This document shows positions 1 to 8,717 of a DNA stretch of 8,717 nucleotides, piece after piece (position 1 is the stretch's first letter; each line of letters starts with the position of its first letter). The notes beneath the pieces were generated by a model. That model was not told where the DNA came from and did no database searches. It saw nothing but the letters and a program-made list of their open reading frames with translations. Source of the stretch: a virus (Duplodnaviria > Heunggongvirae > Uroviricota > Caudoviricetes); the IMG/VR virus record IMGVR_UViG_2724679073_000005; one strand, written 5' to 3'. The position numbers and the translations under genes were made by a program.

Positions 1-332
1 CTAACTTTGCAACAGTGCCACCGGATTTACGCGGTGAGTTTATCCGTGGTTGGGATGATGGGCGAGGTGTGGATGCGGGAAGGGTCATCTTAAGCATACA
101 GGGGTGGTTAACAGGAAGTCATTATCATAATATTCGGTCATGGGACGCGTGGGATAACACGGTATTGGTGCCAAATGACAGAGGGGGGGATAGTCTGTTG
201 TCGACAGATAACGCCGTCCGGCAAGGAGCGATTAATGGTAAATTTACCAGTCAATACAGAACGGAGTTATCTGGGGGGAATGAAACCCGCCCACGTAACA
301 TTGCCTTCAATTATATTGTGAGAGCAGCATAA
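1..332 (+). CDS. Tail fibre protein, C-terminal variable (receptor-binding) cassette in expressed orientation; 5' end truncated by window edge
   Basis: Frame open from position 3 to TAA at 330-332 (NFATVPPDLRGEFIRGWDDGRG...ETRPRNIAFNYIVRAA). No credible start or RBS inside the window; the GTG at 15 is an ORF-caller artefact. Stop overlaps the ATG of the downstream chaperone gene (TAATG). Shares the GEFIRGWDDGRG block and the C-terminal 16-aa motif with the three minus-strand cassettes. Confidence 0.8.
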   Translation, partial: NFATVPPDLRGEFIRGWDDGRGVDAGRVILSIQGWLTGSHYHNIRSWDAWDNTVLVPNDRGGDSLLSTDNAVRQGAINGKFTSQYRTELSGGNETRPRNIAFNYIVRAA

Positions 333-943
333 TGGATAATGCGATATTAAATAGCGAACTTATAGCCATACAGGCAGGAAACATTATCGTTTATAACTAT
401 GATGGTGGTAATCGGGAATATATTTCTGCATCAACTGAATATCTTGCTGTTGGCGTTGGTATTCCGGCAAATTCTTGTTTGGATGCTCCAGGCTCACATA
501 AAGCAGGTTATGCGATTCTCCGTTCAGAGGATTTAAGTTCATGGGAGTATGTGCCAGATCATCGTGGCGAAACTGTCTATAGCATTGACACTGGGAATCC
601 CGAAGAAATCACGGTGTTGGGTGACTATCCGGAAAATACAACCACTATCGCCCCGCTAACACCATACGACAAATGGGATGGAGAGAAATGGGTGGTTGAT
701 ACTGAGGCTCAACATAGTGCAGCTGTAGAGGCAGCAGAAACAAAACGTCAGTCATTGATTGATACTGCGATGGATTCCATTAGTCTGATTCAGTTGAAAT
801 TACGGGCTGGACGGAAGTTGACGCAGGCAGAAACCACGCAGCTTAACTCCGTGCTAGATTATATAGACGAGCTGAACGCGATGGATTTAACCACGGCACC
901 AGATCTCAACTGGCCTGAAAAACAACTTTCTACAGCCAGTTGA
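332..943 (+). CDS. tfa: Tail fibre assembly protein (Tfa; Mu U / P2 G / lambda Tfa-type chaperone)
   Basis: 203-aa ORF translationally coupled to the tail-fibre stop. Size and position are typical of Tfa. C-terminal region (...LTQAETTQLNSVLDYIDELNAMDLTTAPDLNWPEKQ) resembles the conserved Tfa C-terminal domain ending in a (N/E)WPE motif, as recalled from P2 G. Confidence 0.8.
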   Translation: MDNAILNSELIAIQAGNIIVYNYDGGNREYISASTEYLAVGVGIPANSCLDAPGSHKAGYAILRSEDLSSWEYVPDHRGETVYSIDTGNPEEITVLGDYPENTTTIAPLTPYDKWDGEKWVVDTEAQHSAAVEAAETKRQSLIDTAMDSISLIQLKLRAGRKLTQAETTQLNSVLDYIDELNAMDLTTAPDLNWPEKQLSTAS

Positions 944-948
944 TATAA

Positions 949-1467
949 TTAATCCGCCCTCACAATATAATTAAATGCAATATTACGAGGGCGGGTTTCT
1001 AAGCCAGCAGTACCTAAATTAGCTACGGACTGTTTATATGTTTTAAAAGTTCCATAATTAGGGGCTGGCAATCCTGCATCGCTTGTGTTCCCCCATCTGA
1101 TAACTCCCGTATTACCACTAGTAGCCCATGCCTCGTCAAAGTAGAAATTAATTGAGCGGTCAGTTGCTACGGTTGATTTTGACGGTAATCCGTGAGCATG
1201 ATCCTCCGTTGCATATCCTTGCTCGCTTAAAATAGAGCGACCAGAGTCAATCCCTCGCCCATCATCCCAGCCACGGATAAACTCACCGCGTAAATCAGGT
1301 AATTTTAACGTTGGGTAAACCTTTGCCAGATTTGGGTACTTTTCAGAAGAAAATGCTGCTCCGTTACATTTCAGCCACCCCGTTGGCGGAGTGGCTGAGG
1401 GCCACGGAACAGGTACGCCAACAGGCAATGCTGAGCCTTCCCCCAAACCAACGTTTTTATGCCGCCC
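949..1467 (-). CDS. Silent alternative tail-fibre C-terminal cassette A (promoterless 3' gene segment)
   Basis: Minus-strand frame open from 1467 down to stop at 949-951: GRHKNVGLGEGSALPVGVPVPWPSATPPTGWLKCNGAAFSSEKYPNLAKVYPTLKLPDLRGEFIRGWDDGRG...ETRPRNIAFNYIVRAD. No ATG or RBS; the TTG 'start' at 1444-1446 lies inside the crossover-site candidate. Convergent with tfa, 5 bp apart. Confidence 0.7.
   Translation of the reverse strand, partial: GRHKNVGLGEGSALPVGVPVPWPSATPPTGWLKCNGAAFSSEKYPNLAKVYPTLKLPDLRGEFIRGWDDGRGIDSGRSILSEQGYATEDHAHGLPSKSTVATDRSINFYFDEAWATSGNTGVIRWGNTSDAGLPAPNYGTFKTYKQSVANLGTAGLETRPRNIAFNYIVRAD
1256..1467 (-). repeat. ~210-bp repeat unit (copy 1 of 3) covering the site-proximal conserved part of cassette A
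   Basis: Near-identical to 1769-1981 and 2228-2441 by direct comparison. Encodes GEGSALPVGVPVPWPSATPPTGWLKCNGAAFSSEKYPNLAK(V/A)YPT(L/N)KLPDLRGEFIRGWDDGRG. Boundaries approximate. Confidence 0.8.
1438..1463. other. Candidate 26-bp serine-invertase crossover site (site A), hix/gix/cix-like
   Basis: TTCCCCCAAACC-AA-CGTTTTTATGCC. Left 12-bp half matches the invertase half-site pattern TTnTCnnAAACC in 8 of 12 positions; central AA dinucleotide; right half degenerate. Sits at the 5' edge of cassette A and overlaps the stop codon of cassette B. Confidence 0.55.
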
Positions 1468-1981
1468 TTACGATGTAATTAAATGCAACGTTGCGAGGGC
1501 GAGTTTCTGTACCTACATTTCCACTAATTTCACCATAACGTTTAACACTACGAGAGCTAATAGCTCGTAGTGAGGAAGGCACCTTATGACCGGGTTCGTC
1601 CGTTTTAACTATTCCCCCGTCACCGTATGTAGCTAGTATTCCTGGATTTACGCCTTCCCGTGCACTTCCTGCGGCGAGTCCGCCCCCTGTCCATAATTCC
1701 ATATAGTGTGCATGGTCCAAAATTGTGTGTGGCTGCCAATTAAGCAAAGCGCGGCCAGCATCCACCCCGCGCCCATCATCCCAGCCACGGATAAATTCAC
1801 CGCGTAAATCAGGTAATTTTAACGTTGGGTAAACCTTTGCCAGATTTGGGTACTTTTCAGAAGAAAATGCTGCACCATTGCATTTCAGCCACCCCGTTGG
1901 CGGTGTGGCTGAGGGCCATGGAATAGGTACACCAACGGGCAGCGCCGAGCCTTCCCCTAAACCAACGTTTTTATGCCGCCC
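1457..1981 (-). CDS. Silent alternative tail-fibre C-terminal cassette B (promoterless 3' gene segment)
   Basis: Manual translation shows the minus-strand frame open from 1981 to stop at 1457-1459 (~174 codons); the ORF track only reports 1457-1765 from an internal GTG. Begins GRHKNVGLGEGSALPVGVPIPWPSATPPTGW...PDLRGEFIRGWDDGRGVDAG and ends ETRPRNVAFNYIVRAA. Its stop codon lies inside the crossover-site candidate of cassette A. Confidence 0.7.
   Translation of the reverse strand, partial: GRHKNVGLGEGSALPVGVPIPWPSATPPTGWLKCNGAAFSSEKYPNLAKVYPTLKLPDLRGEFIRGWDDGRGVDAGRALLNWQPHTILDHAHYMELWTGGGLAAGSAREGVNPGILATYGDGGIVKTDEPGHKVPSSLRAISSRSVKRYGEISGNVGTETRPRNVAFNYIVRAA
1769..1981 (-). repeat. ~210-bp repeat unit (copy 2 of 3), cassette B
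   Basis: The cassette C-terminal-proximal ~65 bp is identical to copy 1; the site-proximal ~135 bp is about 90% identical. Boundaries approximate. Confidence 0.8.
1952..1977. other. Candidate 26-bp serine-invertase crossover site (site B)
   Basis: TTCCCCTAAACC-AA-CGTTTTTATGCC, one mismatch to site A, same orientation. At the 5' edge of cassette B, overlapping the stop codon of cassette C. Confidence 0.55.
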
Positions 1982-2441
1982 TTACGATATAATTAAAGGC
2001 AATATTACGAGGACGGTTTTCATTAGCTGTTGGCACGACACGAGAGGCGTCGAATCCAAGGTCATCGGTTTTGCCTATATCAGTTGTGTTATTCGGCATT
2101 CTCGCAGATCGTGTTCCTGCATCATAAAAAGCCCCTCTGATTGCATCAAAAGACATGCCAATCCCGCCATCTGCGAACCCCTCAATATTTCTTATTGCAT
2201 CCCCCTGTGAAGATAATAATTGTCGCCCGGCATCCACACCACGTCCGTCATCCCAGCCACGAATAAATTCACCGCGTAAATCCGGCAATTTATTAGTAGG
2301 GTAAGCCTTTGCCAGATTTGGGTACTTTTCAGAAGAAAATGCTGCTCCGTTACATTTCAGCCACCCCGTTGGCGGAGTGGCTGAGGGCCACGGAACAGGT
2401 ACGCCAACAGGCAATGCTGAGCCTTCCCCCAAACCAACGTT
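1971..2441 (-). CDS. Silent alternative tail-fibre C-terminal cassette C (promoterless 3' gene segment)
   Basis: Minus-strand frame open from 2441 to stop at 1971-1973. N-terminal 42 residues are identical to cassette A (identical DNA over ~135 bp), followed by a distinct middle and ENRPRNIAFNYIVRAA at the C-terminus. No start codon or RBS of its own. Confidence 0.7.
   Translation of the reverse strand, partial: NVGLGEGSALPVGVPVPWPSATPPTGWLKCNGAAFSSEKYPNLAKAYPTNKLPDLRGEFIRGWDDGRGVDAGRQLLSSQGDAIRNIEGFADGGIGMSFDAIRGAFYDAGTRSARMPNNTTDIGKTDDLGFDASRVVPTANENRPRNIAFNYIVRAA
2228..2441 (-). repeat. ~210-bp repeat unit (copy 3 of 3), cassette C
   Basis: The site-proximal ~135 bp (2305-2440) is identical to copy 1 (1321-1446); the distal part has diverged (KAYPTNK versus KVYPTLK). 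Boundaries approximate. Confidence 0.8.
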
Positions 2442-2449
2442 TTAGTCTT
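2424..2449. other. Candidate 26-bp serine-invertase crossover site (site C), adjacent to invertase gene
   Basis: TTCCCCCAAACC-AA-CGTTTTAGTCTT. Left half and core identical to site A, right half diverges. Lies 55 bp upstream of the invertase ATG, the usual position of the gene-proximal site in Gin/Cin/Hin systems. Confidence 0.55.
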
Positions 2450-2503
2450 AATCCCTACCTATACCAACGATGTATTTTTAACTAAACAAAGAGGTTGTTT
2501 TTC

Positions 2504-3076
2504 ATGCAAATTGGCTACATTCGTGTGTCAACAAATGACCAAAACACAGATTTACAAAGAAATGCACTGAACTGCGCAGGATGTGAACTGATTTTTGAAG
2601 ATAAAATAAGCGGAACAAAGTCAGCCAGACCAGGCTTGAAAAAGCTGCTCAGAACGTTATCAGAAGGAGATACGCTGGTTGTCTGGAAGCTGGATAGGCT
2701 TGGCAGAAGTATGAAACACCTTATCACGCTTATAGAGGAGTTGCGGGAAAAAGGTGTTAATTTCCGTAGTCTGACAGACAGTATTGACACATCAACACCC
2801 ATGGGGCGTTTCTTTTTTCATGTCATGGGTGCTTTAGCAGAAATGGAACGTGAATTAATTGTTGAGAGAACACTGGCCGGACTGGCAGCTGCACGCGAAC
2901 AGGGACGCATTGGCGGACGTCGCCCGAAGTTGACAAAAGAACAACATGAGCAAATAGCGAGGTTGATCGAAAATGGCTACAGCAGGAAACAGTTGGCAAT
3001 TATTTACGATATCGGTGTATCGACGATTTATCGTTATCATCCTGTAGAGAAGCGCCAAACTCAATCTGAGCTGTAA
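2504..3076 (+). CDS. Serine site-specific DNA invertase, Gin/Cin/Pin/Hin/Min family (resolvase-type catalytic domain plus C-terminal HTH)
   Basis: MQIGYIRVSTNDQNTDLQRNAL... carries the catalytic-serine motif (RVST), the conserved VVWKLDRLGRS and FRSLTDSIDTSTPMGRFFFHVMGALAEMERELI blocks, and the GRIGGRRPKLT hinge, followed by an HTH tail. ATG at 2504 has an AAGAGG RBS 10 nt upstream. Exact ortholog (cin, min, pin) cannot be decided by eye. Confidence 0.95.
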   Translation: MQIGYIRVSTNDQNTDLQRNALNCAGCELIFEDKISGTKSARPGLKKLLRTLSEGDTLVVWKLDRLGRSMKHLITLIEELREKGVNFRSLTDSIDTSTPMGRFFFHVMGALAEMERELIVERTLAGLAAAREQGRIGGRRPKLTKEQHEQIARLIENGYSRKQLAIIYDIGVSTIYRYHPVEKRQTQSEL

Positions 3077-3196
3077 TTCTAATGCCGCGTCGGTGTAATT
3101 TATCTTGATAGAATAGGTACATTTATCGCGCGGCACATCAATTCGATGTATCTAGCGCCTGCTGACCGCTAATGAAAACTGTTCTCGAAATGTTGT

Positions 3197-3215
3197 CCCT
3201 AGTCCGAGACTAGGG
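3197..3215. promoter_or_regulatory. Perfect 8-3-8 inverted repeat (CCCTAGTC-cga-GACTAGGG); candidate operator or late-promoter element
   Basis: 19-bp dyad in the non-coding leader between the invertase and the downstream operon. No U-run follows, so it is not an intrinsic terminator. A TANNNT hexamer (TAGGGT, 3211-3216) overlaps its right arm, positioned 3' of the dyad centre. Function unverified. Confidence 0.35.
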
Positions 3216-3511
3216 TATCACCTCTGGAAAGCATACGCAGAACCTTTTTTAACCCAGGGTGCCCAGCTTTTTTGCTGCTCGCCTTATTCGCAAAAATTAG
3301 CTCACATCCTGCGCTTTCAAGTGCTTTTCACTGCATAGCTGTGTTTTGTTCATTTGTCTATATGCGTACATAGCCTATTAGCATATTTTCTGCCCACTAT
3401 CGTTATTTATTGCAAGCTACAGGTTTTAATTAACAAAACCAGTGTGTGTGGAAATCACAAAGTGCATACCGTTCTCAAATGTTGTTCAACTTACTGTTGT
3501 ATAGGTAAAAA

Positions 3512-3775
3512 ATGACATTTTATGTACATATCGTGATGTTATCCCTTCTTGGTGGGGTGTATTCGTATTTGAGTGGGCTATGTGAAAACCGTTACGAGTC
3601 TTCATGCAAGAAATTGCTGGCCGAATGTATTTCCGCCGTACTTGCTGGCTTTATTGGCATGTATCTCGCGGAATATAAGGACATGAATGAAAGCCTTCAG
3701 AGCTGCATGGTTCTTATTTTCAGCGCCAATAGCAGGCTTATTATTGAAGGTTCCAAAAGTCGGTTGAATAGGTAA
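3512..3775 (+). CDS. Hypothetical small membrane protein (two predicted TM helices; possibly holin-like)
   Basis: 87-aa ORF with two hydrophobic stretches (VHIVMLSLLGGVYSYLSGL and LAECISAVLAGFIGMYLAEY) and a weak AGGT RBS. Co-oriented with and just upstream of the lysis/dar operon. Confidence 0.35.
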   Translation: MTFYVHIVMLSLLGGVYSYLSGLCENRYESSCKKLLAECISAVLAGFIGMYLAEYKDMNESLQSCMVLIFSANSRLIIEGSKSRLNR

Positions 3776-3820
3776 GTCTCTTATGCAACATAACCGGTTG
3801 AGAAGTTACTTTGCATACCA

Positions 3821-3846
3821 TTACCTCCTGACAACGTAGGAGGGAA
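3821..3846 (+). promoter_or_regulatory. Hairpin that sequesters the Shine-Dalgarno of the 3850 ORF
   Basis: CCTCCT (3824-3829) pairs with AGGAGG (3838-3843) across an 8-nt loop; the stem extends by two more pairs beyond one mismatch. The GGAGG RBS for the GTG start at 3850 sits inside the 3' arm. Confidence 0.35.
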
Positions 3847-3849
3847 CTT

Positions 3850-4179
3850 GTGCTTGACACACAGGAATTAGCTCCAGTTGCTATTGCGCTCCTGCTTTCA
3901 GTAATTGGTGGGATAGGCACGTTCCTGATGGATGTCCGAGACGGTCGCCAGTCTGGCAATTTGTTGGGATTGGTTACGGAGATCTTTGTTGCAGTGACAG
4001 CTGGCGCGGTGGCGTACCTATTGGGGCAACACGAGGGCTGGGAGTTATCAATTACGTACTTAATGGTAACGATAGCCAGCAATAACGGTCATGAGGTGAT
4101 TTCAGGGATGAAACGAGTGAATATCGATAGCATTCTGAATGTTCTTACAAGTTTGGTGAAAAAGGGAGGCGGGAAATGA
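3850..4179 (+). CDS. lydA: Holin-like small membrane protein (2-3 TM helices, basic C-terminus); candidate P1 LydA homolog
   Basis: 109-aa ORF with GTG start and a strong GGAGG RBS. Hydrophobic helices (LAPVAIALLLSVIGGIGTFL and LLGLVTEIFVAVTAGAVAYLLG) and a KKGGGK tail. First gene of a coupled operon leading into dar-like genes, as in the P1 lydA-lydB-dar operon. Symbol assigned by architecture, not by sequence search. Confidence 0.5.
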   Translation: MLDTQELAPVAIALLLSVIGGIGTFLMDVRDGRQSGNLLGLVTEIFVAVTAGAVAYLLGQHEGWELSITYLMVTIASNNGHEVISGMKRVNIDSILNVLTSLVKKGGGK

Positions 4180-4619
4180 TTGGCTGGGGTGTATGCGTTC
4201 TTGCGTTAGCCTTAGCCGATCGCTATTTGCTAAAACGCAAGGACATCACGCATTTAGAACTTGGTGATGTGGAAATTAAACCGGGTTTCATCCGGGTGCC
4301 GTTCAAATACCGGTCTAAATTCCCGTTTTTGCGCGGCGCAACGGTCAGATATTGGATCCGCGATGTTCAGAAGCCGACGACAGTGATTGAAGGCGAACAA
4401 CGTTGTTTGACGTCGGCTGAACAGGGCGAAAACAGTGAATGGTTGTACATACCCACTGAATATATGGGTAAAGGAGAGCGACTGTGGCATTTCAACGTCA
4501 TGGTTACGCATGGCGACTCGTTCATTAACCCGTTGTATCGGATTTTCCCTGTTACTCAGCAAATCCGCAGAAGTTACGTAATAAATCTCGCACAGGATGT
4601 GTCAGATGACGAAAAATAA
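4176..4619 (+). CDS. lydB: Membrane-anchored protein; candidate antiholin (P1 LydB-like)
   Basis: 147-aa ORF whose ATG overlaps the upstream stop (ATGA). N-terminal hydrophobic anchor (MIGWGVCVLALALA) followed by a soluble domain. Position between the holin-like gene and the hdf-like gene. Symbol assigned by synteny only. Confidence 0.45.
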   Translation: MIGWGVCVLALALADRYLLKRKDITHLELGDVEIKPGFIRVPFKYRSKFPFLRGATVRYWIRDVQKPTTVIEGEQRCLTSAEQGENSEWLYIPTEYMGKGERLWHFNVMVTHGDSFINPLYRIFPVTQQIRRSYVINLAQDVSDDEK

Positions 4620-5208
4620 GTATGCAACGGTCGATTTTGACCAGGTTAATGAAAAGGGGCTGAAATCCCTTATCGCGGCGATCAATAAAACCGGTGTTAC
4701 GGTAATTGAGGTTGACTCCAGCAACCGCGCAACAACGAAAGATGGCGTTAAAGTTAAAACCGCAAAGCTGGTTCTTAACGACGGACAAATTCTTGCCATA
4801 CAGGTAAACGATACTGGCGATATATCGTCTGTGAGGCTGAATGGAAAAGCTATTCCTAACGCTCAGTCGCCGGATATCAAGACGCTTGGTACCGTCATGG
4901 GGCAAGCGGCCCGCAAAAACTCCGCAAAATTCCAGAAATCACTGATCGCCAAAGCGAAACGTGTTGCCAATCCGGTAGACAAGAAACCGGCAGTAAAATC
5001 CAACTTTCAGCGCCTGCAAGAGGCAAAACAGCGGAATGCTCAGGTGGTTGCCGCTTATAAATCAGCGCAGAACTCGGTGTCTTTCAATCAACAGCAGATC
5101 ACTGATTTGCGGGCGAAGCTGGATAAGGAGACAGGCCGACTCAATAACGAAAAGGCCCGAAATGGCGAACTCAAACGCCGTCTTAAGCAACTGAAAGCAG
5201 GAAATTAA
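4606..5208 (+). CDS. hdf: Hdf-like protein (paralog of a DarA internal domain); putative capsid-associated antirestriction accessory protein
   Basis: ORF track start is 4597, but the ATG at 4606 has an AGGA RBS 8 nt upstream and is the likelier start. Shares a ~70-aa domain with the next protein (LNDGQILAIQV...TLGTVMGQAARKNSAKFQ versus LSDGQTISILF...TLAQVTMKLANLAEKNSAKFQ), then a basic coiled-coil tail. Size (~22 kDa) and position match P1 hdf. Confidence 0.55.
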   Translation: MTKNKYATVDFDQVNEKGLKSLIAAINKTGVTVIEVDSSNRATTKDGVKVKTAKLVLNDGQILAIQVNDTGDISSVRLNGKAIPNAQSPDIKTLGTVMGQAARKNSAKFQKSLIAKAKRVANPVDKKPAVKSNFQRLQEAKQRNAQVVAAYKSAQNSVSFNQQQITDLRAKLDKETGRLNNEKARNGELKRRLKQLKAGN

Positions 5209-5209
5209 C

Positions 5210-7129
5210 ATGGAACAGTTCAATATCAATAAAGGGGTGACGATCAAGCCTGGGCTTGACGTGCTTCCCCCGCCAGTGACTGATGATGAATATCGCGCAT
5301 TAATGGCCGGTGAGGACCGCTATCTGATGACGGAATCCAACACCCTGGAGGAAATCGAGGCTACGTTCTTCTATGACACGCCGATCCACTGGTGTGCTAC
5401 GGATTTACTGGAGGCGATTAGTTCTACTCGTTTGCAGTTACACCGGACCATGCAGGCATTTGTCCGGGCATTGAACCAGAAGCTGAATGGTACCGGAATC
5501 TCTGCGGGGAGTGATAAAACGGGGGATGTGGCCCAGAGCGGCGCGCGCGCGATCGGCGGTGCTGAAATTGGCCGGGCACGTAACGTTAACGGGCTGCCGG
5601 TCCTGCCAGCCATTATTCCGCTCAGTGATGGTCAGACTATCAGCATTCTGTTTCATAGCCCGACAGCGGAAAACCGGATCACCAATAGCGATACGCTGGT
5701 TGCTTTCCAGTTCTTACTGAATAAAAAAGACGTTACTCACACCGTTGCTCCGATGAGTGGACGTGATATGACGCTGGCGCAGGTCACCATGAAACTTGCC
5801 AACCTTGCAGAGAAAAACTCGGCAAAATTTCAGCGTGCGCAGAAGAAGAAAAAAGCCCTTGTTGATGAAATAACCCAACTACAGGCTGACAGTGACCAGA
5901 AAGAGGATGCCATGAGCGACCTCGTGGATCAGGTGGCAGCGGTAGAAGGGCAGAAGGTAGATCTGGAGCAGAAAATTAACGCTGTTGCATCGGAAGCGGA
6001 TTCTCTTTATGAAGAGAATGAGCGTTTGCAGACGGAGATTGATCAGCTCAATCGCACTGGTGGGCGCGATACCATTGCTCCTGCGGGGATGACTGGTGGA
6101 CACTCTCGCGCGATGACGGATCGCCTTGCCAGTATCAAAAATCGTATGCATATGAACGGGGAAGTGACGCTCAGTAATGGTGCATCAATGAAGCAATTCA
6201 TTGAGGACGGCGAAGGGTATATCCAGTTAACCGATTCGGATGGCAGCGTGTACATGATCAAGGCTAAATCCATACAGGGTGTGGACATGGCAGATGCGAT
6301 CGGCAAGCTGTTTAAAGCCTATAAAGCGGGTAATGTATCGGAATACCTGGTCCAACCAGAAGAACATAAACCGGAAAACGTCGAACCTGAACCAGCGGAG
6401 GATACCGGTAGCTCTTCGCCTGAACCAGAAGTCTCTGTAGGTGCATATCGATATGCCCTGCAAATGCGTCCGGCGGCCCCTGGCGCAATACCTGAAGGTA
6501 ACAAAGCAATTCTGCCGCGCCCTGATGAAGGTGACCCGTATTATGAATATGCACGCTACGGCATTGCTACTTACGATACCCCGCTTTCTGATCAGCAAAT
6601 GAGTGAGTACGACCTGAAGTTATTGCCTCGCGAGGATTCTTTCGACTTCCTGGCGAAGACACTTACTAATGGTCCGTTTGGCAAATATGCACAAAAAGCT
6701 CTGGAGCTGGCCACCAGCTCACCAGACGAGTTCCGCGTAATGCTGAAAACTCAGTTTCAAAAAACTTTCCCCAATATTGCGTTTCCGGGGGGCGCTGGCA
6801 CCGAGAAAATGGTGCAGAGCATGATCAATGCATTGCAGGCCGAAGTCGGTGAGATTACTCAGCCAGAACCTGCCCCGGCACAGCCTGATGAAACGGTTAG
6901 CGAAGCAGATGCAGAGGCTAATAAAGCCATTGAATATCTCAATAACGTGATGGATATGCAAAGCACTGACATGGCGGAGATCCGTAACGCCCGGGGCAAT
7001 GTCCGGGAAGCGATTGCAGCCCTTCAGGCTGCCGGACGTTTTGAGGAAAACGAAGAGCTGGTTAATGGCGCTGCTCGCCACCTGGCTGATCTGCTGGTAG
7101 CAATCCAGAAAGCGGGGGTAGCGGCATGA
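5210..7129 (+). CDS. darA: DarA-like protein (phage internal head / defence-against-restriction protein)
   Basis: 639-aa ORF (~70 kDa) with an AGGA RBS. Contains the hdf-like domain, a long heptad-rich coiled-coil (about residues 190-285) and Pro/Glu-rich linkers. Size, flanking hdf-like and 121-aa genes, and position downstream of the tail-fibre invertase match the P1 darA operon as recalled from the literature. Not verified by search. Confidence 0.6.
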   Translation: MEQFNINKGVTIKPGLDVLPPPVTDDEYRALMAGEDRYLMTESNTLEEIEATFFYDTPIHWCATDLLEAISSTRLQLHRTMQAFVRALNQKLNGTGISAGSDKTGDVAQSGARAIGGAEIGRARNVNGLPVLPAIIPLSDGQTISILFHSPTAENRITNSDTLVAFQFLLNKKDVTHTVAPMSGRDMTLAQVTMKLANLAEKNSAKFQRAQKKKKALVDEITQLQADSDQKEDAMSDLVDQVAAVEGQKVDLEQKINAVASEADSLYEENERLQTEIDQLNRTGGRDTIAPAGMTGGHSRAMTDRLASIKNRMHMNGEVTLSNGASMKQFIEDGEGYIQLTDSDGSVYMIKAKSIQGVDMADAIGKLFKAYKAGNVSEYLVQPEEHKPENVEPEPAEDTGSSSPEPEVSVGAYRYALQMRPAAPGAIPEGNKAILPRPDEGDPYYEYARYGIATYDTPLSDQQMSEYDLKLLPREDSFDFLAKTLTNGPFGKYAQKALELATSSPDEFRVMLKTQFQKTFPNIAFPGGAGTEKMVQSMINALQAEVGEITQPEPAPAQPDETVSEADAEANKAIEYLNNVMDMQSTDMAEIRNARGNVREAIAALQAAGRFEENEELVNGAARHLADLLVAIQKAGVAA

Positions 7130-7491
7130 CACTATCAGCTATTGAGTTAATGGATCTCAGCGATAAGTTGGATGCTCTGATGTCCAAAGCGGCTACCGCG
7201 AGTGGCATGGAGTTGCTGGATATCAGCGATGAAATTGACCAGATCATGCAACAGATGGGGTACGGCGCGTCCGGCGGCAGTAGTGGCGAGGAAAAACAAC
7301 CTTCGGTACATGATGGTGTGCCAAAACTGGTTGCTGATTTCCTGGCTGATAAATTCGTCGATCAGAGCACAGATGCATTTATCGGTACCTTGCAGGACTT
7401 GAGTCAATATGTTGGCACATACATCGACCTGGACCAGGTTAAACAGCACACGGCGGCATGGATAGCCGCCAACATTGAAGAGGCAGCATAA
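7126..7491 (+). CDS. ddrA: DdrA-like small acidic protein
   Basis: 121-aa ORF (~13 kDa) with ATGA overlap to the upstream stop. Acidic, with a Gly/Ser linker (GYGASGGSSGEE). Position immediately after the darA-like gene. Confidence 0.5.
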   Translation: MTLSAIELMDLSDKLDALMSKAATASGMELLDISDEIDQIMQQMGYGASGGSSGEEKQPSVHDGVPKLVADFLADKFVDQSTDAFIGTLQDLSQYVGTYIDLDQVKQHTAAWIAANIEEAA

Positions 7492-7503
7492 GGCGTAACA
7501 GGG

Positions 7504-8717
7504 ATGAGCTTAAGCGATCAGGTGGTAATGGCCACCAGCATAGAAACGCTGATCGAGCTGCTTAAGAACCTGCCCGATTATGGGCGGGTTTCGTATGTGG
7601 TGACAGCGAAGGGAGACGAGGTAAAAACAGCGTTTGATATCGTCGATGCCTCAGCTCTTTTGGTATCCAATACTCTGGATGGGAAAATTAATCCTGACTA
7701 TCCCCAGGAACTTCAGCCGCGCGACCGGACCCGCGCATCCAGCCTTCTTCAGGTTAACCAGATATCCAAAGATTTGCGGCCTGCTCAGCTTACTGATTCC
7801 GGTTTATCCAGCCATGGTGCGCCGATAATTGGTGAGGACAATGCCGTTGAGTCAGGTAATGGACGGACCATGGGGATCATCAAAGCCTATCAGGACGGCA
7901 ATGCGGATCGGTATCGTGAGTACCTGATTGATCATGCGACCGAATTCGGCATACGACCTGAAAAGGTTGAATCAATGACGGCTCCGGTACTGGTGCGCCG
8001 CCGGTTAACTAAGGTTGACCGCGTTCAGTTTGCCAAGGACTCAAATATTTCTGATCTTCAGGAAATGGCAGCCAGTGAAAAGGCTTTTGTTGATGCCGAC
8101 AGCATAACACCGGCGATGATGGCGCTTTTTAACCCGTCAGAAAGCGGAGATCTGCTTAGCCGCAGTAATGACGCGTTTATTCGCGGATTTATGACGCAAG
8201 TTGGTGCCACACAGGCGGCTGGCCTTGTAACTGAAGATGGGCGACCAACACGGCAACTTGTAGACCGTATACAAAACGCGATCTTTGCCAAGGCATATAA
8301 GGATGCGCGCCTGGTAAGGATGGTTGCAGAAGAACCTGATCCGGATATGCGTAATGTTCTGACGGCGCTTAATGCGGCAGCCAATGATTTTGTCCAGATG
8401 CAGGCTTTATCAGGAGAAGCGCACAAGCAGGCTGTGACAACTATTGTTGATGGCATTGAGACAGCGGATAGCCTCGATAAAAAGGCGCTGGCGGCATTGA
8501 AAGATGCGGTAGACCTGGTAAGGCAATCGAAGGAGTCAGGCCAGCATATTACCGATGTTATTGCTCAGGGGGATATGTTCAGCGAAACGGCCCCGGAAGT
8601 GAAAGCACTCGCGTTGTTCATCGTCGCGAATAACCGTAGCGCGAAGCGTATGGCCACCGCCTTTAAGTTGATGGCTCAACGTATCAATGATGAGTTACAG
8701 GGCACTGTTGCAAAGTT
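7504..8717 (+). CDS. ddrB: DdrB-like large protein, N-terminal ~404 codons (3' end beyond window)
   Basis: Checked codon by codon: frame open from ATG at 7504 to the window end with no stop. The ORF track misses it because no stop is reached. Follows the ddrA-like gene as in the P1 darA operon. Confidence 0.5.
   Translation, partial: MSLSDQVVMATSIETLIELLKNLPDYGRVSYVVTAKGDEVKTAFDIVDASALLVSNTLDGKINPDYPQELQPRDRTRASSLLQVNQISKDLRPAQLTDSGLSSHGAPIIGEDNAVESGNGRTMGIIKAYQDGNADRYREYLIDHATEFGIRPEKVESMTAPVLVRRRLTKVDRVQFAKDSNISDLQEMAASEKAFVDADSITPAMMALFNPSESGDLLSRSNDAFIRGFMTQVGATQAAGLVTEDGRPTRQLVDRIQNAIFAKAYKDARLVRMVAEEPDPDMRNVLTALNAAANDFVQMQALSGEAHKQAVTTIVDGIETADSLDKKALAALKDAVDLVRQSKESGQHITDVIAQGDMFSETAPEVKALALFIVANNRSAKRMATAFKLMAQRINDELQGTVAK

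Follow-up and report, generated by a model that had tools for sequence, protein, structure and literature searches.

In the head of phage P1, the proteins Hdf and DarA form pairs on the inner capsid surface; a cryo-EM structure (PDB 9UKM, 2026) revealed 55 such pairs per head, located at the penton-hexon junctions (PMC12810830). Hdf and DarA assemble into one complex with their N domains and helices: the helix of Hdf, which is basic, and that of DarA, which is acidic, are arranged as a parallel, charge-complementary bundle bound to the inner capsid wall, the packaged DNA is in contact with positively charged faces of the N domains, and the hexon is contacted via DarA loop 102-116 (PMC12810830). 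An independent preprint points to the same mechanism. The Hdf N domain was fitted into low-resolution density only, without experimental resolution, and residues 1-69 of DarA, for which cleavage by the prohead protease has been proposed, are absent from the map (PMC12810830). The virion stoichiometry is ~400 Hdf to ~100 DarA, not 1:1 (PMC12810830), so that most Hdf resides outside the 55 ordered pairs. [quoted passage not shown]

The window analysed here, a stretch of 8,717 nucleotides from a virus of the Caudoviricetes, carries the operon in the order lydA-lydB-hdf-darA-ddrA, in agreement with the P1 annotation (Table 1); in P1, ddrB follows ddrA. The DNA of these genes is 98-99.7% identical to P1 and P7, with the same gene order (over 3.4 kb, 98.3% for P1 and a maximum of 99.7% among other P1-like phages), and the two genes of interest are annotated as hdf and darA in P1, P7 and these 98-99.7% identical relatives. 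Searches with phmmer against the PDB assigned Hdf to 9ukm_H (E 9.5e-122) and DarA to 9ukm_I (E 0, full length). Both proteins are essentially the same as in P1, with few point substitutions in the region; Hdf differs from chain H of 9UKM/9VZ0 at 3 of 203 residues (A27T, N61S, R80K). In contrast, window positions 1-3200, the adjacent tail-fibre inversion region, are not P1-like. The partial gene duplication proposed in the sequence-only reading is supported by the annotation of hdf and darA in the relatives and by Iyer et al. 2017.

Table 1. Features of the hdf-darA region (positions refer to the 8,717-nt window)
Feature	Position	Strand	Description
lydA	3850-4179		
lydB	4176-4619	+	upstream gene of the darA operon; Pfam LydB, E 8e-104
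hdf	4597-5208	+	203 aa from ATG 4597
DarA_N domain of Hdf	4633-4923	+	aa 13-109: helix, five-strand region, start of second helix
Hdf core noticed in the sequence-only reading	4726-4941	+	aa 44-115: LNDGQ (D62, Q64), LNGK (N82, K84), KNSAKFQK (F112)
Sole DNA-level similarity of hdf to darA	4915-4935	+	21 nt coding KNSAKFQ; 19/21 identical to 5813-5833
Long C-terminal helix of Hdf	4999-5205	+	aa 135-203; net charge +9
darA	5210-7129	+	639 aa
N-terminal segment of DarA	5210-5416	+	aa 1-69; acidic, net charge -10; without Hdf counterpart
DarA_N domain of DarA	5405-5821	+	aa 66-204; 'hexon binding domain' in the cryo-EM paper (PMC12810830)
DarA counterpart of the core	5573-5839	+	aa 122-210: LSDGQ (D140, Q142), LNKK (N171, K173), KNSAKFQR (F207)
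Alpha-helix domain of DarA	5822-6058	+	~aa 205-283; aligns collinearly with the Hdf helix by profile and by structure
DarA_C domain	6440-6625	+	aa 411-472; PF18789, E 5.7e-17; absent from Hdf
ddrA	7126-7491	+	downstream gene of the operon; PHROG 1855, E 1.5e-57

The start of hdf overlaps the end of lydB and offers two ATG codons. The second one, at position 4606, is preceded by AGGA 8 nt upstream, gives a protein of 200 aa and corresponds to the start used by most database copies of hdf. The region of interest had initially been delimited as 4606-5900 with a 203-aa first protein; the left boundary thus coincides with the second ATG, while the 203-aa reading begins at 4597, and the right boundary is too short, as it truncates the homologous helix of DarA, which extends to ~nt 6058. 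The ATG of darA lies 1 nt past the hdf stop codon and likewise has AGGA 8 nt upstream.

All three sequence motifs described in the sequence-only reading are present in both proteins, exactly as stated: L[NS]DGQxxxI (LNDGQILAI, Hdf 60-68; LSDGQTISI, DarA 138-146), TLxxV (Hdf 96-100; DarA 188-192) and KNSAKFQ[KR] (Hdf 107-114; DarA 202-209). The basic coiled coil said to follow them, however, is found in Hdf only, the corresponding helix of DarA being acidic. As both proteins are rich in lysine and glutamine, have long helical regions and attract many weak coiled-coil Pfam matches there, one may ask if they resemble each other merely by composition, without common ancestry. A modest BLASTP result would fit this idea (Hdf 44-115 vs DarA 122-210: 26.2 bits, E 8e-4, 31% identity, 21% gaps). 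Yet in the pairwise alignment that had been suggested as a check, the similarity was above chance, with a Smith-Waterman score of 81 against 42.9 +/- 6.8 (0 of 2000 as high) and 39.5 +/- 6.1 (1 of 2000) in two series of shuffles. The signal also persisted outside the coiled coils: after their removal, Hdf 1-125 and DarA 1-215 scored 65, compared to 30.9 +/- 5.2 for shuffled sequences (0 of 2000 as high), and coiled-coil composition therefore fails as an explanation. Profile-profile comparison with hhalign aligned Hdf 43-201 to DarA 121-282 (97.5% probability, E 7e-12), and with ~65-72 sequences per family Hdf 19-197 to DarA 78-278 (E 5.8e-11); one sequence, P0045, which according to the alignment may be a frameshifted copy, was left out of the profiles. 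The sequence similarity between Hdf and DarA is thus real.

Both proteins match the curated Pfam model DarA_N (PF18788) over positions 2-122 of 122, Hdf with 76.9 bits (E 1.5e-21) and DarA with 143.4 bits (E 3.8e-42), and hence above the gathering cut-off of 27 bits that applies to the whole-protein score. [quoted passage not shown] When this model was compared to the PDB with Foldseek (E <= 1e-3), the experimental DarA chains 9vz0_I and 9ukm_I were the sole matches (200-209 aligned columns, TM 0.50-0.55 normalised by query); the RMSD of 6.5 A results mostly from helix orientation. Taken together, Pfam, hhalign and Foldseek delineate a shared region of approximately Hdf 13-201 and DarA 66-282; from the DarA_N, profile-profile and fold matches it follows that Hdf is equivalent to residues ~70-283 of mature DarA. 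A common domain had been correctly recognized from the sequence, but its size had been underestimated at ~70 residues, since it comprises DarA_N plus the following long helix. A chance or low-complexity origin was ruled out by shuffles with and without coiled coils, Pfam, hhalign and Foldseek; together with the invariant D-x-Q, LN-x-K and F common to both families, we consider its probability negligible.

These invariant residues (D-x-Q, L-N-x-K/R and F) match the conserved Asp and the 'NX+' motif of DarA_N described in the accessible text of Iyer et al. 2017. D62/D140 is present in 64/65 small (Hdf-type) and 71/72 large (DarA-type) sequences, N82/N171 is invariant in all 65 and 72, and the position of K84/K173 is K or R in 60/65 and 69/72, respectively. 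With D, Q, N, K/R and F so nearly invariant in the two paralog groups, also among distant phages, the question arises if DarA_N primarily acts as an enzyme or inhibits restriction enzymes directly, with Asp and Asn as catalytic or ligand-binding residues and binding of capsid or partner being secondary. Fusion of DarA_N to enzymatic domains such as InPase in distant phages is in line with this possibility, as is an early counter-restriction activity of unknown nature that was raised in the accessible part of Iyer et al. 2017. On the other hand, no catalytic fold was detected (PDB matches of the Hdf model in Foldseek besides DarA were insignificant), cryo-EM shows the domains as structural, DNA-facing elements (PMC12810830), and the conserved residues may equally be structural. 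We therefore regard an enzymatic or inhibitory main role as unlikely.

Relative to Hdf, the DarA_N domain of DarA has insertions at ~aa 97-117 and ~aa 152-164, and the hexon-contact loop 102-116 falls within the first of these, i.e. in a segment that is absent from Hdf according to hhalign. Downstream of the domain, DarA aa 210-285 begin with a KKKK patch and then turn acidic (net charge -9). The helix charges in the window (+9 in Hdf, -9 in DarA) are as expected for the pairing observed in P1, the sequences being nearly identical to those in 9UKM. An initial guess that the shared domain serves capsid targeting or mutual interaction fits the P1 cryo-EM structure, in which the helices downstream of the shared motifs associate with each other and with the capsid wall; pairing and capsid anchoring rest chiefly on these helices rather than on the ~70-residue motif core. 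For these helical parts, homology is suggested by their collinearity and is not rigorously separable from coiled-coil composition.

hdf and darA are direct neighbours on one strand, separated by 1 nt only, which could indicate that Hdf arose recently as a partial tandem copy of darA, i.e. as a young fragment that is maybe decaying or marginally functional. The name hdf, which we take to stand for 'homolog of darA fragment', would suggest the same. At the DNA level, however, a repeat search between hdf and darA found no similarity beyond the single 21-nt stretch listed in Table 1, in which both differences are synonymous third positions, and protein identity is only ~25-31%. The pair is kept in a P1-like element of E. 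kobei, where Hdf is 41% identical. A scan of viral contigs with the Hdf alignment returned only near-identical P1-like loci and no distant relatives. With distant DarA-type proteins as queries, the viral-contig scan yielded 80 distant loci, which are not phylogenetically independent; in 62 of these 80, a small Hdf-type gene is located upstream of a large DarA-type gene on the same strand. In the remaining 18, no Hdf-type gene was detected within ~4 kb by a six-frame search with all filters off, and the Hdf-DarA partnership is therefore not universal.

In these distant loci, all 62 small ORFs scored better with a profile built from P1-like Hdf only (median 46.5 vs 3.2 bits), and 63 of 64 large ORFs scored better with the DarA profile. 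Also, in 41 of 45 pairs the small protein has the more positively charged helix. Hdf-type and DarA-type proteins are thus separately conserved groups in distant phages, and the Hdf family comprises 314 clusters at 50% identity, most of them with full-length proteins of ~200 aa. Together with the requirement for Hdf, a virion protein, in head size control and Dar protein loading, this speaks against a young or decaying fragment, which we consider very improbable; the 21-nt match and the split of the two types by reciprocal profile scores ruled out a recent tandem duplication. Judged from the sequences, the duplication is ancient and not a recent event in this operon, because no more than 21 nt of DNA similarity remain and because each of the two types, small and large, is conserved on its own in distant phages.

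Accordingly, hdf and darA, located in the late darA operon of this P1-like phage, are very probably paralogs of ancient origin. Hdf consists of the alpha+beta domain DarA_N and one long helix, to which DarA adds the acidic, putatively cleavable N-terminal segment, the insertions in the N domain, and a C-terminal half with a penton-binding domain and DarA_C. We infer that the heterodimer may have arisen from a homodimeric ancestor with a self-pairing helix, that the Hdf and DarA helices would have diverged to opposite charge after the duplication, and that the N domain of the small partner may have lost, or never gained, direct capsid contacts. Viewing DarA-Hdf as a pseudo-symmetric paralog pair suggests why deletion of either gene gives the same phenotype, and why only DarA has its N domain anchored to the hexon, the contact loop being part of an insertion.

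Whether this reading extends far beyond P1-like phages is, in our estimate, about evenly balanced. Hdf-type and DarA-type proteins would then represent an ancient two-gene, paralogous-heterodimer module derived from a self-pairing ancestor, whose basic and acidic helices would attach large 'polyvalent' cargo proteins (e.g. InPase-DarA_N fusions of 600-1700 aa) to the inner capsid wall for co-ejection with the DNA. In many unrelated phages, large effector proteins may enter the head by means of the same docking module; if so, it would be useful to annotate virion-delivered anti-defence cargo and to engineer protein delivery by phage particles. The structural papers limit the conserved mechanism to 'among P1-like phages' and do not discuss paralogy, and the accessible text of Iyer et al. 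2017 defines the domain without describing a conserved pairing of a small and a large gene.

For the window itself, these results are of little consequence, as paralogy and pairing are already documented: the former is known from the gene name, Pfam and the 2017 paper, and the physical pairing has been visualised. Compared to Pfam DarA_N and the 'polyvalent proteins' of Iyer, Burroughs, Anand, de Souza and Aravind (2017), Hdf and DarA match the full model and share the motifs given in the accessible text. According to that text and Pfam, DarA_N is an alpha+beta domain of ~100-140 residues, whereas here the collinear similarity extends through the long helix, and our analysis divides the family into two separate subfamilies, Hdf-type and DarA-type, that usually occur as a gene pair. 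A further analogy, drawn by Zheng et al. 2026, is to CpmA/CpmB of SaPI1 (80alpha), which like DarA-Hdf are internal capsid-bound helical proteins affecting triangulation number and head size, a likeness for which no sequence relationship is claimed. CpmA/B are removed at maturation, whereas DarA-Hdf is retained in the virion and ejected with the DNA.

The 3.4 kb surrounding hdf and darA are 98.3% identical at the DNA level to phage P1, 98.8% to P7 and at most 99.7% to other P1-like phages, in which lydA, lydB, hdf, darA and ddrA are annotated beneath the match. In the P1 record these genes have the same order as here, behind the late promoter LPdar (see table). Hdf differs at three residues from the Hdf chain of the P1 cryo-EM entry PDB 9UKM, and DarA matches the DarA chain 9ukm_I over its full length. 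A single nucleotide separates the hdf stop codon from the darA ATG, which has an AGGA 8 nt upstream, and hdf overlaps the 3' end of lydB, an arrangement that would fit coupled expression. The hdf start is ambiguous, with two candidates within 4594-4608: ATG 4597, immediately abutted by AGG, gives the 203-aa Hdf and is the start in P1 and in 9UKM, and ATG 4606, with AGGA 8 nt upstream, gives a 200-aa Hdf and is the one used by most database copies, such as a cluster with 924 members. Further downstream, ddrB starts near 7504 and continues past the window end; antisense within it lies a 132-aa ORF (8058-8456, minus strand) equal in size and position to P1 iddB ("unknown protein function").

Genes of the dar region (window positions) and motifs common to both proteins (residue positions)
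Feature	Window (nt)	Strand	Product	Hdf (aa)	DarA (aa)
lydA	3850-4179	+
lydB	4176-4619	+
hdf	4597-5208	+	203 aa
darA	5210-7129	+	639 aa
ddrA	7126-7491	+
L[NS]DGQxxxI				60-68	138-146
TLxxV				96-100	188-192
KNSAKFQ[KR]				107-114	202-209

At the other end, the tail-fibre inversion region (1-3200) has an arrangement unlike that of P1, the P1 match beginning only at 3208 (~87%). Phages vB_EcoM-673R5 and 813R1 (annotated Hin1/Hin2) cover merely 51-56% of it. A serine invertase lies at 2495-3076 on the plus strand, while in P1 cin and the darA operon are on opposite strands, and four tail-fibre C-terminal cassettes (15-332, plus; 949-1446, 1457-1765 and 1971-2432, minus) all end in ...ETRPRNIAFNYIVRA(A/D). 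Judged by this layout, the region resembles multi-cassette inversion systems such as p15B Min.

All motifs that the sequence-only reading had claimed for Hdf and DarA were found in both proteins where it had placed them. Residues conserved across both paralog groups are D-x-Q (D62/Q64 in Hdf, D140/Q142 in DarA), L-N-x-K/R (N82/K84 and N171/K173) and F112/F207. LN-x-K, missing from that reading, is the 'NX+' motif of Iyer et al. 2017. BLASTP aligned Hdf 44-115 with DarA 122-210 at 31% identity and 21% gaps (26.2 bits, E 8e-4). The Smith-Waterman score of 81 was reached by none of 2000 shuffles of Hdf (42.9 +/- 6.8) and by one of 2000 when both proteins were shuffled (39.5 +/- 6.1). This similarity does not stem from the coiled coils, since the N-terminal parts without the coiled coils (Hdf 1-125, DarA 1-215) still score 65, above all 2000 shuffles (30.9 +/- 5.2, maximum 59).

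The shared region, put at ~70 residues from the sequence, had been underestimated. Pfam DarA_N (PF18788, cut-off 27 bits) matches Hdf 13-109 (E 1.5e-21) and DarA 66-204 (E 3.8e-42), in both cases above the cut-off and from end to end of the model; DarA_C follows at DarA 411-472. By hhalign, the P1-like Hdf alignment pairs with the DarA N-terminal alignment over Hdf 43-201 and DarA 121-282 (97.5% probability, E 7e-12), and when the two families are represented by 65 and 72 sequences, respectively, the match extends over Hdf 19-197 and DarA 78-278 (E 5.8e-11). This latter alignment places DarA insertions at ~97-117 and 152-164, and in Hdf a short linker (125-134) that interrupts a helix continuous in DarA. 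A template-free AlphaFold2 model of Hdf (mean pLDDT 83.5) predicts helix 23-30, five strands within 36-81, and helices 94-124 and 136-200. Its best PDB match is experimental DarA, 9vz0_I (E 2.3e-6, 200 columns), along with 9ukm_I (E 1.1e-5, 209 columns, TM 0.55 by query length); nothing except these DarA chains matched at E <= 1e-3. The whole of Hdf is therefore the counterpart of mature DarA ~70-283.

Partial gene duplication had also been proposed, in keeping with the gene name hdf, which we take to mean 'homolog of darA fragment'. The paralogy is correct, with the caveat that the event is ancient: the sole DNA-level similarity is 21 nt of KNSAKFQ codons (4915-4935 and 5813-5833), 19 of them identical and both differences synonymous. 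An Enterobacter kobei P1-like element, its Hdf 41% identical, retains lydA-lydB-hdf (207 aa)-darA (543 aa). In a distant uncultivated phage (loci L006/L007), a 176-aa DarA_N protein precedes a 402-aa DarA_N protein (4461-4988 and 5001-6209 in L007) and a giant helicase-like protein (>2000 aa). In pairwise BLAST, P1-like Hdf matches the small L007 protein over its full length (E 7e-12) and large proteins match large ones (E 4e-23), whereas small-versus-large comparisons are far weaker.

Scanning IMG/VR with distant DarA-type proteins gave 80 loci, 62 of which carry an Hdf-type ORF (~155-345 aa) upstream of the large gene on the same strand (in L093, for example, they lie at 2496-3215 and 3449-8266). 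Among the 47 loci with two complete ORFs, 26 have a gap of 10-110 nt between the small and the large gene. With a profile restricted to P1-like Hdf, every one of the 62 small ORFs is detected, at a median of 46.5 bits versus 3.2 for the DarA profile; of 64 large ORFs, 63 show the opposite preference. The other 18 loci yielded no small gene even by six-frame search without filters; in two of these there is almost no upstream sequence. The large partners include many polyvalent proteins (600-1700 aa), e.g. with an InPase domain N-terminal to DarA_N; such domain types were listed earlier by Iyer 2017. An exhaustive profile search yielded 314 Hdf-type clusters (50% identity, E <= 1e-3), most of them ~200 aa and matched along their whole length.

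Some database copies deviate. A Xenorhabdus szentirmaii P1-like plasmid (L004, 5001-5858) encodes a DarA of just 285 aa with no hdf upstream, adjoining a transposase-like gene (DUF772), with RepL and a Rep3 gene nearby; by its gene content it looks like a decayed Dar locus. The E. coli plasmid protein P0045 (196 aa) is Hdf-like over its first ~50 residues, its last dozen and an internal LNGKAIPNAQSPDI block, and divergent elsewhere, which suggests a frameshifted Hdf copy. For P0052, a fragment of DarA that shares 70% identity with the query, we suspect that the Bacillus altitudinis label reflects contamination or mislabelling.

The stretch following the motifs had been described as basic in both proteins, which holds for Hdf (net +9 for 135-203, +15 for 114-203) and fails for DarA, where the AQKKKK patch is followed by an acidic segment (210-285, net -9). 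Among the distant loci, which are non-independent samples, the small-protein helix is positive in 57 of 62 and the large-protein helix negative in 45 of 60; of 45 pairs, 41 have the more positive helix in the small protein.

In the P1 head, 55 DarA-Hdf pairs sit at penton/E-hexon junctions, the DarA-Hdf bundle binding the capsid inner wall (Zheng et al. 2026, PMC12810830). DarA 1-69 is missing there and presumed cleaved. Hdf is modelled for 135-203; its flexible N domain was fitted to low-resolution density beside DNA, positive face towards the DNA (PMC12810830). According to an independent preprint, T=13 heads carry the same appendages and T=7 heads lack them. Deletion of hdf or of darA is reported to give mostly small heads, and particles devoid of all other Dar proteins (via PMC12810830 and PMC9024508). 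The suggested role in capsid targeting or mutual interaction was thus right, although pairing and anchoring come mainly from the helix after the motifs, not from the motifs. In P1, a 'DarA_N domain plus long helix' module is thus present as two diverged copies, whose basic and acidic helices run parallel and zip together along the inside of the capsid, N domains towards the DNA; given the near-identity of the sequences, this mechanism should be transferable to the phage studied here. According to the cryo-EM description and hhalign, the DarA hexon-contact loop (102-116) falls within an insertion that has no Hdf equivalent, which would fit a mobile Hdf N domain and a fixed DarA N domain. Possibly, duplication of a self-pairing ancestor gave a parallel bundle of homologous helices, which would later have diverged to opposite charge.

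The relation between Hdf and DarA is not new; it had emerged from the gene name and the Pfam family as well as from the 2017 domain paper and the 2026 structure. The words 'paralog' and 'duplication' are not found in PMC12810830, which does not treat the two as paralogs. Our additions are modest: the similarity, judged from profiles and the predicted fold, continues through the helix; the hexon-contact loop sits in a DarA-specific insertion; and the small-plus-large paralogs are widespread as neighbouring genes well outside P1-like phages.
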